A program made the translations under genes and the position numbers. This document shows positions 2,251 through 42,247 of a stretch of DNA of 64,000 bases, in pieces. Source of the stretch: Eledone cirrhosa (taxonomy: Eukaryota); NCBI GenBank assembly GCA_964016885.1, contig OZ024740.1:139872001-139936000 (forward strand). Reading direction: 5' to 3'. A model generated the notes under the pieces. That model saw only the letters and a program-made list of their open reading frames with translations, made no database searches and had not been told where the DNA came from. Within the stretch, counting starts at the first letter, position 1. Each line of letters begins with the position of its first letter.

Positions 2251-2372
2251 AAGAGTCAGGACCCCGACGGCTGAGGTCCGGTCGTTAGGGGTCCTGACTC
2301 GTTCCCTATTACGCACTCTACTACCCTAAGTATCGAGTACTCTCGTGCGTTATCTTACCAAACCTTTGTTTT
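2251..2372 (+). mobile_element. Short fold-back PLE pLTR-like insert (GAGCTC-hairpin family)
   Basis: gagtcaggaccccgacgg...ggggtcctgactc hairpin followed by the family arm cctattac.cactctactaccctaagtatcgagtact. Confidence 0.7.
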
Positions 2373-2391
2373 ATATATATATATATATATT

Positions 2392-4197
2392 TTCTCCGGG
2401 TAACAGGATCCGGTGGTGAAGAGAGAGATGTAAGGGAATGTAGAATGAGATGTATAGTGTGTAGAGGATCGTAGGAAAGAGCGTAAAAATTAAAAATAAT
2501 AACACGAGATAGAGTTACCTTGGGAGAGATTTAATTGTCCCTATATTTCGGATTCGCATCCATCATCTGCGGAGAGCGGGGTTACCGGAGGGGTGTTTAT
2601 CTGTCGGCGAGGAACGGTACGTGTCCTCTGCTGTTCGCTGTTTGTGACTAACTGAGGTATTCTGCAGAGCGCACGTGCGCGCGGAATAAGTGCGGTCAAG
2701 CAAAGGTCGACGGTCGAGGCAGTTCTTTTAATTGTGGGAGTTGGATGGCGTTAGCTGTCAATCCATTGTATTATTTATCTATGCTGGTTTTTTGTATTAG
2801 CAGTGTAGTATATTCGGTGGTAGTAGTCTGCCTGGTCGGTGGATGGTGGCGGTGCTACACACCCAATAACAATCGTTCGAATGTTACTGTGTGTGTGTGT
2901 GTGTGTGTGTGTGCGTGTGTTGTTGTCTCGTTTGTTTACACCAACCACCTCATTTCGCTTCTCTCGGATCGGTTATTTATTTGTGGCCCTAGGCGTTTGA
3001 TCCAAAGTGCTTCCCTGATTCGTAACGTGCCGACGTTGCGTTCTGTTGCTAGCACTGTGACAATGGGCCTTCCGTCTTTGTTTCCGCATTTGGTTATGTG
3101 TTTCCGGAAAGACGAGACCCTGGTGTTGATGTGCTCCTTGATCCGGATGTGTAGCGGCCGGATTGTGCTACCGATATAGTAGTGGTTGCACTTGTCACAT
3201 TCTACATTATACACGACGTATGTGCGTAAGCAACAGTTCGTATGGCGCATCGGACAGTTTCTGAGGGACCACGCGTCAGTCGATTTCCTGGGTTTCCTGG
3301 AGAGGCATCTTCGCAGGGAGAGGCCCGAGTGGGCCAGGTGGATGTCGAGCCCCTCTCTCCGTATAGCCCTGCGGATAGCGTTGGTGGTATTCTCGCCCAG
3401 GTGTGGTATCTTAAGGAAGCACTTGCCTTGGGTGTTTCTCTGCCTCTTGCGTCTGGTGTCTCTTACTCTGTTTGTGAGCGCGGCAGGGTACCCGTTCGTC
3501 TCCAGCACTTTGAGGAATCGCTTGGTGTGGGTGACACCATTCACGGGATTGCTGCATCTGTTTTTAATTCGCGTGATCTCGTTCGTGATGTACCCTCTTT
3601 TAGCACTGTTAGGGAGAAGTTGGTGTGGATCCCTCCCTGCACCGTGGTGTTGATTCAGAAGTCGATGAGGGCAAGTGACCCGTCGTCGCTGGGGTGTTCA
3701 ACACTGAAATCAATGTTCTCGTCTGTGTTGTTGAACGTCTCATAAATTCCCTTCGCCATCTCCTGGGAAGATGTGAAGATGAGGATGTCGTCCTCGTACC
3801 TTGAGAAAAAGGGTGACGGCGTTTGGGTGGCAGGTGTTGAGTGCCTTGCGCTCGAGTCTGTCCATGTATGAGAGCGCTAGCACACCCGACAGGCTTGAGC
3901 CCTTGGGCAGTCCCGAGGTTTGCTGGTATCTTTGGTCGATAAAACCGAAGTATGTGGTGTCAACGACGACGGATAGGAGTTGGTGGATGTCAGTGGGGGT
4001 GAGCTCGAAGCAGTGTAGGTCGGTAGATTGGACGCGTTCCATCAGTATATCAACGGCTCTTTACACCTCGGTCCCGGCGCTCCCGGCCGTTGATATACCG
4101 ATGGAACGCGTCCAATCTACCGACCTACACTGCTTCGGGCTCACCCCACTGACATCCACCAACTCCTATCCGTCGTCGTTGACAACACATACTTCAG
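2392..4197 (-). mobile_element. 5'-truncated Penelope-like retroelement (RT + C-terminal GIY-YIG endonuclease, 3' pseudo-LTR, 5' fold-back)
   Basis: RT motifs YQQTSGLPKGSSLSGVLA..YMDRLE and frameshifted RYEDDILIF (~3775-3801). GIY-YIG VVYNVECDKCNHYYIGSTIRPLHIRIKEH...LRIREALWIKRLGPQINN (2936-3250). ~3947-4057 recurs inverted at ~4086-4196. The 3' end abuts (TA)n. Confidence 0.92.
2537..2574 (-). ncRNA. Variant hammerhead motif in Penelope 3' pseudo-LTR
   Basis: Minus: CAGATGA-T-GGAT-GCGA-ATCC-GAA-ATAT-A-GGGAC, on the same strand as and downstream of the Penelope ORF. Core has U4A. Confidence 0.55.
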
Positions 4198-4227
4198 AGT
4201 TCCGTTCATTGCTTCCACTATCTACTG

Positions 4228-39200: not shown

Positions 39201-41674
39201 AAACACAATCTGACTTTCCATGTTGCAACAATCTTTAAGAGATTCATATTATCTTGTAATATTAGTATTTATCCCCATCCATTATATGTTTGTATTGGGG
39301 GTATATATATATATATATGTGTGTGTGTGTGTGTGTGTGTGTGTGTGTGTGTGTATACAAATATGTAAATATTATACGTATATGTAGATTATATATATTT
39401 CGTTTTTTTAGGATGGAGAACTTTCTGATTTAATGTTCCTACGTTTCTACCCTTTTCCAATCCAACTCCCCCCTTCCCCATCTCCCCACCCCCTCTCTCT
39501 TTCCTTTGTCAATCTATTTAAATATCTGATTTTTTTTATTTTATTTCTTTCTGTATTTCTCTGTCTGTAATCTGACTTTCCTTCTCCCCACCTCCTTCTC
39601 GCTTTATCCAGCTAACTTTCTGTCAATAAGAGGTGGTAAGCAAAATGTTGCCCGACCAAGAGTAAGAAAAGTACACCACTCCTCTTGTAGATTGTGTATT
39701 TCACATATTATAAATATTCTGGTACCTTCTATCGAAATAGATCCTTTGGGGAACATACACGGCCATCCTAGCAAATTTCTTCTGTTTGACATACGTACCA
39801 CTTCAGCTTCAGTTTTAGTTTGGGAAAATACGACGAAAGATGCCATTATATTTGACTGGGTATGATGAGCCGGTAGTAAAGGGCGTCAAACTTTGCAATA
39901 ATGAAATGTGTGTGAAGACAAATAGCCCAATGGTTTTATAGTATGATCGTGGGTTCGTTTTCTTGACCAGGCGACGAGTTGTGTTCTTGATGAAAACATT
40001 TCATTTCACGATGCATTTCATGACAGAACTATAATTAAAACACCCAATAAACCTCCTATGAGATGCAACCTCGTAGGAAGCCAGATAAATCTGCATAGGT
40101 GTTAGCTGTAAATGTAATGTCATAACAATGCAATGCGTATTCAGTTTTCTCATATAATTCAAATCATATGAGAGAGTTGGTGGCTTGTTCGGCGATGCTC
40201 CTCCCGAATGTTTTTCGCATTTTCTGGCGTTTTCCTAATGATATGGTCGCCTTGAATATTCATCATCTTGAAGTGACACTCGACCGTCCTTTAAACGTAC
40301 GTACAACTCGAAAATTATTTGCATCCTAAAGAACATCCACCAGCTCTTATGTATCAGATTTGCTGAGGTTTATACAAAATTTGATGGCCAAAATTTGCCA
40401 GCCAACGTAAAAAACGTTTTAACATATTACACGTGTTCAATTATTTAGCGAGGTTTTGTAACTAGTGTCAAGAGTGAAGGCATATGGACCGGCTAGCGTA
40501 TTGTGTTCTTCGGCAAGATGCTGTATTTCACATTGATATGACTGAGAGCCTATCATTAAAACACCCGAGAAACCTCATATGAGATGCAACTATGTAGGAA
40601 GAAAACTAAACTTGTATCTGTGTGGACTGTCTATTTCATGTATTTCAAATAGCCTGAAGATTCTTTGTAGACTGATTCAATTCGCTGATTATCAATGATA
40701 GTCAACCATGCGTACATTTCCATTGATTATTATAACCCTTATATGGATAGTTCGGAGACATTCTTATAATACCTTGCATGTTGATCCATTGGTCTTTCTT
40801 TCTACAATTTCATCTTTTCGTTATCCCCTTCTGATAGTCAGTATGACTGTCTATGTCTGTTTTCATACTTCCATCCTCCGCGTGTGTGTGTGTGTGTGTG
40901 TGTGTGTGTGTGTGTGTGTGTGTGTGTGTGTGTGTGTGTGTGTGTGTGTGTGTGTGAGAGAGGGAGAGAGAGAGAGAATGTGTGTGGTGCATGTAAAGAC
41001 AACACCCATCGTTGACACATGAAATCAGCATACAGTTACTTGCATTTTGCCAAAATATCAATCTACCATTCTAGCGAAGTTAACTGCTAAATGAATTTGT
41101 TTCGCTAATGGTATTCTCACACAATAAAAACATGCCTGTTGCTGTCATTGGATGGCATTAATGCTTTTCATATCACACTACTTCAAAATGTCCTTGGTTC
41201 TACGATACAGAATTGTATTTTTTTTAAGTGTTTATATTTATCTAAAACCCTTCCATTAAAATTTTATGTCAGAACCTGTAAGTTATTTCCCAAACACCAA
41301 CTAATAAATTGAAAGTTAGATTACTCAATCCCTGTAGCTTCTTGATTATGTTCAAAATTACTTGAAATCATAGGTTGGGATTCGCATTAGAAATATAATA
41401 AAGGCAAAGTCCATTCCTCACTGCAACTATAAAAGTTTCTCTCAAATTTGGATTACGTAATATTGTAAGAGTTCGCAAAAATATTTGGTGTTTTTTTTAA
41501 TTTATGTCAACACTTCTAAAGTAAATTTTTGTGTTCAAACTGCAGGATAATCTGGGATTGTTAAATTTTTTCACTCACCATATTTAGGATGCGAGTCTCT
41601 GAGTATATATATATATATATATATATATATATATATATATATATATATATATATATATATATATGAAACAGTCG

Positions 41675-41769
41675 GGCCCCGACGGCCGAGCATTTGCAGT
41701 TTCAACAGCTAGTTCCAAACTGAATCGCAGATGTGTTGACGATGGAAAAAAACTGTTTCATCGGGAGAT
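41675..41769 (-). ncRNA. Degenerate hammerhead with long stem II
   Basis: Minus: ATCTC-CCGATGA-AACAGTT...(TTCCA..TGGAA)...AGCTGTT-GAA-ACTGC-AAATGCTCG-GCCGT-C-GGGGCC. Core has U4C, triplet GUC. The 3' half is homologous to the GAAACGGCTTGAGCTCAGCCGTCGGGGTC of the fold-back family. Confidence 0.55.
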
Positions 41770-42247
41770 TCCGATATTCAAATGTTTATATATATATATA
41801 TATATATATATATATATATATATGTATGTATGTATGTATGTATGTATATATCGAGAAGGATGTTTTGTGTACTAGTGTACATAAACGTTCAAACATTCAT
41901 AGAATGAGCACTCAGTATATGTGAGCAGGGTGTCCAATTTATTTTCTAAAGAAAAGGGCAACAGTGACTTCAATGTTTCGGAGAATGTCCCTAATATATA
42001 TGTATATAAACTCGTATTAGCACCTGAAGAAAGGTCACTATTGTGATGCCTTTGTATGTGTGTGCGCTAAAAAAAAAACAAATAAAATATAACAGTCGCT
42101 TACAGATACAAATCAGACCTTAAACTAGATCAAAATACTTAATCATCCTACAGTTAAAAGAAAGCGGAATTTAGGTAAAGAGTCGATGCTGTCCTCATAT
42201 GCCATCCTCCTCAAATCCACCCAGGCACCCTGAGTTTTGAAAACACG

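Follow-up and report, generated by a model that had tools for sequence, protein, structure and literature searches.

Head-to-head hairpin inserts in Eledone cirrhosa suggest double-primed reverse transcription by a Hydra-clade Penelope-like element

Introduction

Inverted copies, tails and hammerheads are already known for Penelope-like elements, and both the origin of the inverted repeats and tails and the role of the hammerhead have been stated to be open (PMC8557442, PMC11167929). The transcription start of such elements has been located within the pLTR (PMC2377424, PMC8557442). For the anole Penelope, two internal reverse transcription starts on both strands have been described together with a predicted dimer, and the element used uncut RNA in vitro, with 0 reads ending at the cut site (PMC11167929). 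At full-length junctions of L1, an extra G is derived from the cap (PMC11702581).

Here, we analyze a family of hairpin inserts found in a 64-kb window, i.e., the whole stretch of Eledone cirrhosa DNA that was studied, together with related copies elsewhere in the genome. We propose, with a probability of roughly 70%, that these hairpins are products of a Hydra-clade Penelope-like element, generated by double-primed reverse transcription running to the 5' end of the RNA and then end-joined.

Results

The window contains five hairpins that share a long arm ending in (TA)n, with 83 to 100% identity (E ≤ 1e-17, BLAST within the window). Their junctions were read by hand and numbered from the hammerhead cut site, +1 being the first G of GGGGTC. 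In copy 1 (2251), a degenerate inverted short arm (2246 to 2286, minus strand, about -21 to the +20 end), which adjoins a GA/TA repeat, meets a long arm (2288 to 2370, plus strand) that starts exactly at the predicted hammerhead cut; -21 is joined to +1, the cut site itself, with one additional A at the junction, and the tail has a short internal deletion in the long arm. Copy 2 (8708) joins -26 to -15, with a long arm from -15 to the +98/100 end (8710 to 8822, minus strand) and a short arm from -26 to the +20 end (8824 to 8867, plus strand). In copy 3 (16219), where -18 is joined to -4/-5 in register with stem III pairing, the short arm (16216 to 16252, minus strand) ends at +20, and the long arm (16253 to 16356, plus strand) runs to the long end. 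Copy 4 (25288) joins +2 to +6/+8: its short arm (25381 to 25399, plus strand, to +20) begins one base past the predicted cut, and its long arm (25290 to 25382, minus strand) runs from +6/+8 to the long end. In copy 5 (26045), whose predicted cut falls between 26205 and 26206, -40 is joined to -20; the long arm spans 26047 to 26164 on the minus strand (-20 to the long end) and the short arm 26166 to 26225 on the plus strand (-40 to +20), with -40 adjoining the inferred transcription start (-41).

A sequence-only reading of the window had described six such hairpins, turning at a GAGCTC palindrome (2251, 16219 and 8708), in stem II (26045), or just 3' of the GUC cut site (25288). Five hairpins are indeed present at these positions, and the turn at 25288 was placed correctly. 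The stem II turn at 26045 holds for one arm (-40) but not for the other (-20), and none of the five turns at GAGCTC, since the junctions sit elsewhere (that of 2251 at the cut, not the palindrome). The fixed outer end of the short arm, at +20, had been overlooked. The window has 5 hairpins in 64 kb, a higher density of the family than in a blind sample, where 200 kb contained 2 hairpins together with a single lone arm and a single fragment.

The presumed sixth hairpin, a diverged relative at 41664 to 41788, is instead a lone arm of an older subfamily (41663 to 41785, minus strand), which ends at the +20 site and is flanked by two TA runs. It does possess the CCGATGA core reported for it (41758 to 41764, minus strand; CTGATGA in relatives), within a hammerhead that is whole but decayed. 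An ATTCAGT motif in its loop II (41719 to 41725, minus strand) has as its second A position -41, the inferred capped start. In an alignment, old and young subfamilies have ATTYAGT in common, whereas the remainder of loop II is not conserved between them.

The hairpin sequence had been taken for the 3' half of a hammerhead ribozyme, which is borne out by full copies, whose upstream part supplies stems I and II as well as the core. A three-way junction is predicted for this region (MFE fold), and fold and alignment place three stems around a CUGANGA / GAAA / NUH core, as in a type I hammerhead. The core is CUGAUGA in old copies and UUGA(G/U)AA or CUGAGAA in young copies, and 17 aligned copies display covariation from C3-G8 to U3-A8, plus two G-C to A-U changes in stem II. 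The literal CUGANGA expected upstream of GAAA is thus absent in young subfamilies, yet this does not refute the hammerhead because their core is the known covariant form with U3-A8 (or has C3-A8). The C3-A8 mismatch is found in 6 of 24 long references, and subfamilies carrying it would be poor ribozymes. Rfam returned no hammerhead match at E up to 10 on L113:6740-7000 and none among the 150 of 350 matches listed for the window, the top matches being hairpin or microsatellite artefacts. The stability of the hammerhead fold is no greater than that of shuffles (z = -0.42). The inserts differ from non-LTR retrozymes in being head-to-head halves without core, part of an ORF-bearing unit, rather than head-to-tail tandems.

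That unit is represented by an intact autonomous partner, which the sequence-only reading had said should be sought. At L113:6879-9236, continuous with the long end, lies a 786-codon frame with a reverse transcriptase (RT) and, at the C-terminus, a GIY-YIG. Read directly against the definition in PMC8557442, its translation displays RWR, SDKT, CNCPDRSIC, CNLC and CKH, no CCHH, the RT motifs and a VIYQ...YIG motif for GIY-YIG, and it fits, by eye, the Hydra alignment blocks in the supplement of that study. A Pfam search of this ORF gave no match, and four short motif searches of the same supplement gave 0 matches, the element not being among the families listed there. We assign the hairpins, on the basis of motifs and architecture, to a Hydra-clade Penelope-like element. 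At L113/L171, L112, L142 and L169, pLTRs are made up of partial tandems, with a neighboring inverted truncated copy and a tail at one end, and two tandem copies restart at -40 and -44 following ORF sequence (L152 and L162). The two internal sites at which the arms have their fixed outer ends are located about 90 and 170 nt ahead of the ATG, in the 5' leader. The earlier view of the inserts as Penelope-like integration products holds. Genome-wide (G000), a 33-nt tail word has 19,300 exact matches versus 0 for the reversed control.

Each insert consists of two sense fragments arranged head-to-head, with outer ends 20 nt and 98 to 100 nt past the cut site. Junctions were studied in young copies from 30 Mb of one chromosome, in a table of 77 pairs curated by hand because automatic parsing over-extended or stopped at mutations; 23 further loci remained unparsed. 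One short and one long end were found in 74 of the 77 pairs, which were chosen by junction (the exceptions being one short end with ORF, one with an intermediate end, and one short-short pair), and in 20 of 20 loci of L281 to L300. Among 150 inserts, 107 measure 180 to 219 bp, and pure TA of at least 6 nt is present at the left in 134 and at the right in 139, as expected for insertion into (TA)n. Within the same 150 inserts, 11 of 30 testable flanks show a target duplication, which is exactly 12 nt in 9 of the 11 (shuffled expectation 0.07 at 12 nt); 19 of 30 show no clean duplication, which counts against our best model. Contigs of three runs display loose TA ends at both fixed ends and are silent on expression.

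High copy number, the prevalence of the 180- to 219-bp size and the recurrence of some junctions might suggest that the hairpins copy themselves as a unit, being a non-autonomous element that resembles a SINE, a MITE or a retrozyme. However, junctions vary between copies in the unbiased set, the arms carry diagnostic bases of autonomous subfamilies, no tandem units are seen, and some inserts continue into the ORF (L152 and L348), which makes this origin highly improbable.

The junctions also bear on the proposal that ribozyme structure stalls one reverse transcriptase, which then folds back or switches template at palindromes or stems. Such snap-back synthesis is known for R2 (PMC11371274), the main pile of inner ends lies just beyond the top of stem II in the MFE fold, and a few junctions have the expected form: 2 of 77 have 6-nt stem III homology, 3 of 77 a GTAC palindrome, and 16219 is in stem III register. 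Against this, 0 of 77 turn in GAGCTC, and 63 of 77 have at most 1 nt of homology or an insertion. Furthermore, in 37 of 77 the short arm extends beyond the long arm in the 5' direction, which a single fold-back cannot produce, and the arms do not overlap in 3. The inverted arm has a fixed outer end, an extra C marks where the template ends, and stems I, III and II have all been unwound by the time the enzyme stops. Folding back or template switching of a single cDNA, as the sequence-only reading envisaged, is thus unsupported; we regard it as very unlikely overall and largely refuted already for the main class.

We next mapped inner ends in 99 copies of 100 listed tail matches, picked by the tail word alone, which gave 168 arm ends; a genome search with the whole hairpin favors similar junctions and was left out of the statistics. 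As many as 117 of the 168 arms end at -46 to -34, with a peak at the A of the conserved initiator-like TYAGT in hammerhead loop II. TCAGTY is the initiator consensus. The -41/-40 positions account for 46 of 168 inner ends and -1 to +2 for 10 of 168 (p = 3e-4 versus flanking positions), and short inserts have no inner end between -47 and -72. Breakpoints are therefore far from the uniform distribution that would have spoken against a role for the ribozyme, with 117 of the 154 ends inside the ribozyme span falling within a 15-nt window (binomial p about 1e-60). The idea that the ribozyme sets the stops survives in part: the cut site marks one class of ends, but most ends lie at the likely start in loop II. 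Genome-wide, both arms reach -35 in 11,139 loci and both end near the cut in 422. Of the first 50 listed among these 422, counted by hand, 21 have both arms ending at +1 and separated by an untemplated spacer, and another 8 show a blunt junction at +1. Arms ending there with untemplated bases are indirect evidence for the predicted cleavage at +1.

Arms that cross the wall, i.e., extend past the main pile, pair with partners that do so too (in all 6 of the 6 for which a partner was identified, versus 2 of 79, p = 6e-8). The apex of stem II was considered as a cause of this wall and dropped because the old subfamily shows the same wall without that apical hairpin. A G(-42) template variant was also dropped: 0 of 100 listed wall-crossing arms carry G(-42), and three supposed cases read as cap base plus spacer, class totals being unchanged after the recount.

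Bases added at the two piles differ. In one young subfamily, the base after an arm reaching -41 is C in 906 cases, G in 688 and T in 109. In 20 of 30 loci read, the partner arm does not account for the C; among these, C-G, C-A-G, C-CA-G and C-ATTTTT-G junctions carry an extra base on both arms; most G are the first base of the partner or an opposite-strand reading of the same C. In the old subfamily, the base after -41 is C in 13, T in 1 and A in 0 (among 50 of 70 loci listed), whereas after +1 it is A in 25, T in 17 and C in 6, a significant difference (Fisher p = 4e-8). An extra C at -41 would be expected if the mRNA cap had been copied.

Twin priming might also operate on an RNA whose -41/-45 end was cut by a nuclease at pyrimidine-A steps in loop II instead of being a site of initiation. 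The ends do fall on C-A/U-A steps of a loop predicted to be single-stranded, the conserved ATTYAGT could have a role in tertiary contacts of the ribozyme, and the start is deduced from DNA. Yet -41 receives C in old and young subfamilies alike, which argues against a nuclease because an uncapped cut end should gain A/T as +1 does; we consider this variant unlikely. Head-to-head palindromes would also result from self-priming on an antisense template, a route put forward for the Penelope elements of rotifers (PMC3846280), and the head-to-head architecture, one-arm tail and short target duplications are all reported there. However, the ends of both arms coincide with landmarks of the sense RNA (the predicted cut to the base, and a cap-like base on both arms), and the longer arm at the junction can be either one, so that we give this route scarcely any weight.

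Discussion

Our preferred model, double-primed reverse transcription, builds on features displayed directly by the inserts: their architecture, a short and a long end per insert, the 12-bp duplication, two piles of inner ends and extra bases at each pile. Start site, cap and cleavage are deduced from genomic DNA. In this model, the GIY-YIG nuclease would cut both strands of a (TA)n target about 12 nt apart, and each nicked 3' end would prime a cDNA at either of two internal positions separated by 78 nt (the "tail" of Penelope). Both cDNAs would run to the 5' end of the RNA, mostly a capped start at A(-41), with minor starts near -45, in loop II. A start inside loop II would yield mRNAs without the catalytic core and thus inserts of about 180 to 200 bp. 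In a few percent of cases, the template would be the 3' product of hammerhead self-cleavage, with both arms halting at +1, while the uncut 3' repeat of a read-through RNA would place both arms far upstream and give long inverted copies. The two cDNA ends would finally be end-joined with 0 to 4 nt of microhomology or a short A/T fill.

Several observations count against this model. The pile near the start is broad (13 nt) compared to the sharp +1 pile, which needs trimming or several starts. Four inserts (L055, L170, L174 and window copy 2251), in which one arm ends at -1/+1 but the other extends further upstream, also weigh against it because one pre-cut RNA cannot give them, and a recurrent -41/-35 junction in 13 of 30 G loci is left unaccounted for. 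The in vitro result with the anole element (PMC11167929) likewise counts against the model, as do the C3-A8 mismatch of some subfamilies, the missing Rfam match and a fold that is no more stable than shuffles.

With somewhat less confidence, we think it probable that double priming is the normal route of Hydra-type Penelope and that the hairpins, numbering tens of thousands, form a fossil map of RNA 5' ends. Transcription would begin inside the hammerhead, leaving the 5' copy catalytically dead and the cap copied, and the 3' copy would cleave in vivo, its product being integrated too. A literature search, thin on subscription papers, found neither cap- nor cut-site-terminated Penelope hairpins, nor a cap signature at Penelope hairpin ends in print.

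Thousands of insertions, with ends resolved to the base, point towards a mechanism with two fixed starts, a 12-nt stagger and run-off to a capped or ribozyme-cut end. If true, this one mechanism would account for inverted repeats, tails and 5' truncation, and would provide in vivo evidence of Penelope hammerhead cleavage. With an intact ORF and an RNA leader at hand, the long-open question of insertion becomes testable in vitro. Such hairpins also risk mis-annotation as MITEs or miRNA precursors.

Among described systems, the Hydra clade (Craig et al. 2021, PMC8557442), which includes Hydra-1_Obim, shares RW(R), DKT, a CxCx5C linker, CxxC and CxH near the end, a C-terminal GIY-YIG, a terminal-repeat hammerhead, (TA)n targets, an inverted 5'-truncated copy and a one-sided tail. 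The unit here is about 3.5 kb with a long 3' UTR, whereas theirs are under 3 kb; the tail is 78 nt instead of 30 to 40, and most copies here are hairpins of 180 to 200 bp. Penelope hammerheads (Cervera and de la Pena 2014, PMC4209133) and animal retrozymes (PMC7229834; 10.64898/2026.07.22.740005) have the same type I fold, long stem II, palindromic loop III, U3-A8 variant and opposite-strand motif pairs 100 to 700 bp apart, but stem III here has a full 6 bp and the hairpins are the 3' half only, not tandem retrozymes. Penelope of Adineta vaga (Arkhipova et al. 2013, PMC3846280) likewise shows an inverted pLTR, a one-arm tail and an initiator-like pLTR motif; its duplications are 8 to 10 bp versus 12 bp here, and antisense self-priming misfits the ends we observe.

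Twin priming by L1 (PMC11702581) resembles our model in that the second priming uses the other DNA end, the product is inverted, the target duplication is retained and an extra G is present at full-length 5' junctions. Second priming in L1 is occasional, with variable microhomologies, and mostly adjoins the first cDNA end, whereas here it would be the rule, at a fixed site, with both cDNAs copying the same 5' leader to its end. Finally, Poseidon PAc of Anolis (Frangieh et al. 2024, PMC11167929) also has two internal RT starts that define the tail, extension of both target strands, AT-rich targets and a hammerhead upstream of the starts. There, the ribozyme is dispensable in vitro, whereas here the predicted cut is the exact end point of one class of genomic copies, and the main class stops within the ribozyme, at what is likely a capped start.

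Five head-to-head hairpins in the window

We numbered positions from the predicted hammerhead cut site, +1 being the first G of GGGGTC. All five hairpins claimed by the sequence-only reading, along with its diverged copy, were found in place. Each hairpin consists of two sense fragments joined head-to-head, with TA runs on either side, one arm ending at +98/100 (long) and the other at +20 (short). Alignment and hand reading placed their inner ends at -21 and +1 (hairpin 2251), -26 and -15 (8708), -18 and -4/-5 (16219), +2 and +6/+8 (25288), and -40 and -20 (26045); none of the five turns at the GAGCTC palindrome, the turn point that had been proposed for three of them. 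The presumed six-member family keeps these five hairpins; the copy at 41664 belongs to an older subfamily and is a single arm with the short outer end, its ribozyme whole but decayed.

Nine or more additional hairpins, unrelated in sequence, mostly next to TA runs and two of them near-perfect (99%), lie at 12111-12312, 46931-47289, 3947-4195, 8326-8559, 23933-24029, 25890-26020, 33322-33421, 1422-1542, and 5064-5559, and are probably other families' products of the same kind. Two longer palindromic repeats (355-648 and 1947-2230, the second directly adjoining copy 2251) have relatives scattered elsewhere in the window (e.g., 29970-30085, 31099-31575, and 63526-63680) and in fetched locus L036. 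The window also holds a ~610-bp unit (one copy at 20238-20867 and an inverted-orientation tandem pair at 53132-54364; 94% identity) and an array of a 102-bp unit rich in GGT/GAT (55212-56400).

A large family with an autonomous partner

A 33-nt word from the tail gave 19,300 matches in the genome, and a variant word 3,639, with 0 for reversed controls. Copies that extend upstream show a long 3' UTR, then an ORF. Locus L113, which comprises an inverted truncated copy, a partial tandem, and a full unit, has an intact 786-codon frame (ATG at +192) with RT and, at the C terminus, GIY-YIG; a Pfam search with this ORF gave no match. Its protein motifs (RWR, DKT, CxCx5C, CxxC, and CxH) and its insertion into TA targets fit the Hydra clade as PMC8557442 defines it. 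The element is similar, judged by eye, to Hydra-1_Obim, and is absent from the families listed in PMC8557442, as far as the supplement matches go.

Within L113, ~430 nt of the upstream copy's 3' UTR (5988-6415) is missing from the downstream repeat (9535), a gap at which GT-AG ends were not seen on the sense strand. Stacks of several insertions share microsatellites in L111, whose TA run holds an RTE-like RT frame directly after a family copy (8844-9998), and in L041, L286, and L068/L069. Sequence runs X5 and X6, from two further organisms (B and C), contain contigs with near-identical repeat pieces, one being a head-to-head 60-nt contig.

Outer ends and target duplication

Among 77 parsed pairs, from loci picked by junction (23 more were left unparsed), 74 combine a short end with a long one. 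The 78-nt interval from +20 to +98/100 is the Penelope tail, which PMC11167929 attributes to a pair of internal RT starts, both strands of the target being used. Target duplication is testable only with interrupted TA flanks (30 of 150 inserts); it was found in 11 of these 30, being exactly 12 nt in 9 (shuffled expectation 0.07), and not in the other 19.

Inner ends and junctions

Our hand-curated set, chosen regardless of junction, holds 99 of the 100 exact tail matches that were listed first on contig C1. They comprise 77 short hairpins, 14 long arms that lack an inverted short partner, and 8 arms reaching far upstream. Their 168 inner ends fall at -46 to -34 (117, with 46 at -41/-40), -33 to -2 (25), -1 to +2 (10), or beyond (16). 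Breakpoints are indeed nonuniform, as the sequence-only reading had it (p about 1e-60 against uniformity). The peak at the cut site exceeds flanking positions (p 3e-4). Genome-wide, both arms reach -35 at 11,139 loci; with the patterns used, arms reach -45 in 9,396 cases and -48 in 4,945, a drop to which sequence variation and junction mimicry contribute in part. By inspection, a second subfamily (30 loci) has the same pile. Long-arm inner ends also form a secondary cluster at +7 to +37, around the short start site (L051, L078, L079, L148, L150, L154, L158, and L166; second group L137, L141, L144, L149, and L173), as if the long cDNA were blocked at the site of second priming.

The 77 junctions show 2-6 nt of homology (14), 1 nt (20), blunt joins (19), or insertions (24). 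Template switching or fold-back of a single cDNA had been proposed. Since the short arm extends further 5' than the long arm in 37 of 77 hairpins and the arms do not overlap in 3, neither was copied from the other by fold-back. Snap-back synthesis, as PMC11371274 describes for R2, would explain at most a few junctions.

The predicted hammerhead ribozyme

Full copies have the predicted fold of a type I hammerhead. With z -0.42 against shuffles, fold stability alone is no evidence for it, and Rfam searches gave no hammerhead match with the full ribozyme, nor among the 150 of 350 matches listed for the window. The CUGANGA expected upstream of GAAA is present in old copies (CUGAUGA) and fails literally in young long references (UUGA(G/U)AA in 15/24, CUGAGAA in 6/24, other in 3/24). 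This does not refute the ribozyme, because an alignment of 17 copies shows C-G replaced by U-A at the 3-8 pair (and G-C by A-U at two pairs of stem II), and a U3-A8 core is described for Schistosoma Penelope elements in PMC4209133. In the predicted fold of L113:6788-6912, an extended stem I closes a few bases from the +20 end, which would place the short RT start at the ribozyme's 3' foot.

Arms end at a putative capped start or at the predicted ribozyme cut

The main pile is highest at the A within TYAGT, inside an ATTYAGT common to old and young subfamilies, the remaining loop II having diverged; we take this motif to resemble the TCAGTY initiator. The old subfamily does not have the young subfamily's apical hairpin, and its ends gather at the same A. 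After arms reaching -41 in one young subfamily, the next base, leaving out the templated A, is C in 906, G in 688, and T in 109. Reading 30 loci for each base, we found that the partner arm does not supply the C in 20, that G is mostly the partner arm's first base or the same C from the opposite strand, and that about 17 of the T loci have no explanation. At several -41 junctions both arms have the extra base, which in two lone arms precedes the TA flank. In the old subfamily, the added base is C-rich at -41 (C 13, T 1, A 0; 50 of 70 loci listed) versus A/T-rich at +1 (A 25, T 17, C 6; p 4e-8). The simplest reading is that the extra C was copied opposite the mRNA cap. Full-length L1 junctions are reported to carry a cap-derived extra G (PMC11702581), and Penelope transcription starts lie within the pLTR (PMC2377424).

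Ribozyme structure had been suggested to stall reverse transcription. Arms crossing the pile have a crossing partner in 6/6 cases (1 more had no partner found) versus 2/79 otherwise, which ties the pile to the RNA rather than to stalling of individual enzymes. Following ORF sequence, L152 and L162 begin anew at -40 and -44, which template jumps from an RNA 5' end would give.

Both arms end near the hammerhead cut at 422 loci genome-wide. Hand counts for the first 50 listed gave both arms at +1 with a short untemplated spacer in 21 (one ambiguous by 1 base), a blunt join at +1, alternatively a 2-nt overlap, in 8, one arm at +1 with a partner 1-3 nt shorter in 7, 7 ambiguous, and 7 other; all 11 fetched examples pair a short with a long end. 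Run-off on ribozyme-cut RNA would leave this pattern. Antisense self-priming, by which PMC3846280 explains Penelope palindromes, would also make palindromes, but it does not fit arm ends that are sense-RNA landmarks.

A model for hairpin formation

The architecture, end classes, duplication length, and added bases are established from the DNA. We propose that a staggered double nick would open the target, two primings would occur at fixed sites within the mRNA leader, the cDNAs would run off at the capped start or the ribozyme cut, and their ends would be joined by end-joining. RNA starting at -41 lacks the catalytic core and is predicted to refold, so cut RNAs would have to come from the 3' repeat in read-through transcripts or from trans cleavage. 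Four inserts with one end at -1/+1 and the partner further upstream argue against a strict one-RNA version. The model does not explain why the main pile is 13 nt broad or why a -41/-35 junction recurs.

Comparison with known systems

The hairpins are real, and the element is of a known kind: inverted copies, tails, hammerheads, and TA targeting of Penelope-like elements are already described in PMC8557442, PMC3846280, and PMC4209133. Our literature search for cap- or cut-terminated Penelope hairpins found no report. The hairpins are probably a base-exact record of the element's RNA ends, which bears on the open question of its integration mechanism. The accessible portion of an octopus genome paper (PMC13282606) lists Penelope-like repeats but does not give the hairpin anatomy seen here, and retrozymes (PMC7229834 and 10.64898/2026.07.22.740005) are tandem, unlike these head-to-head hairpins.
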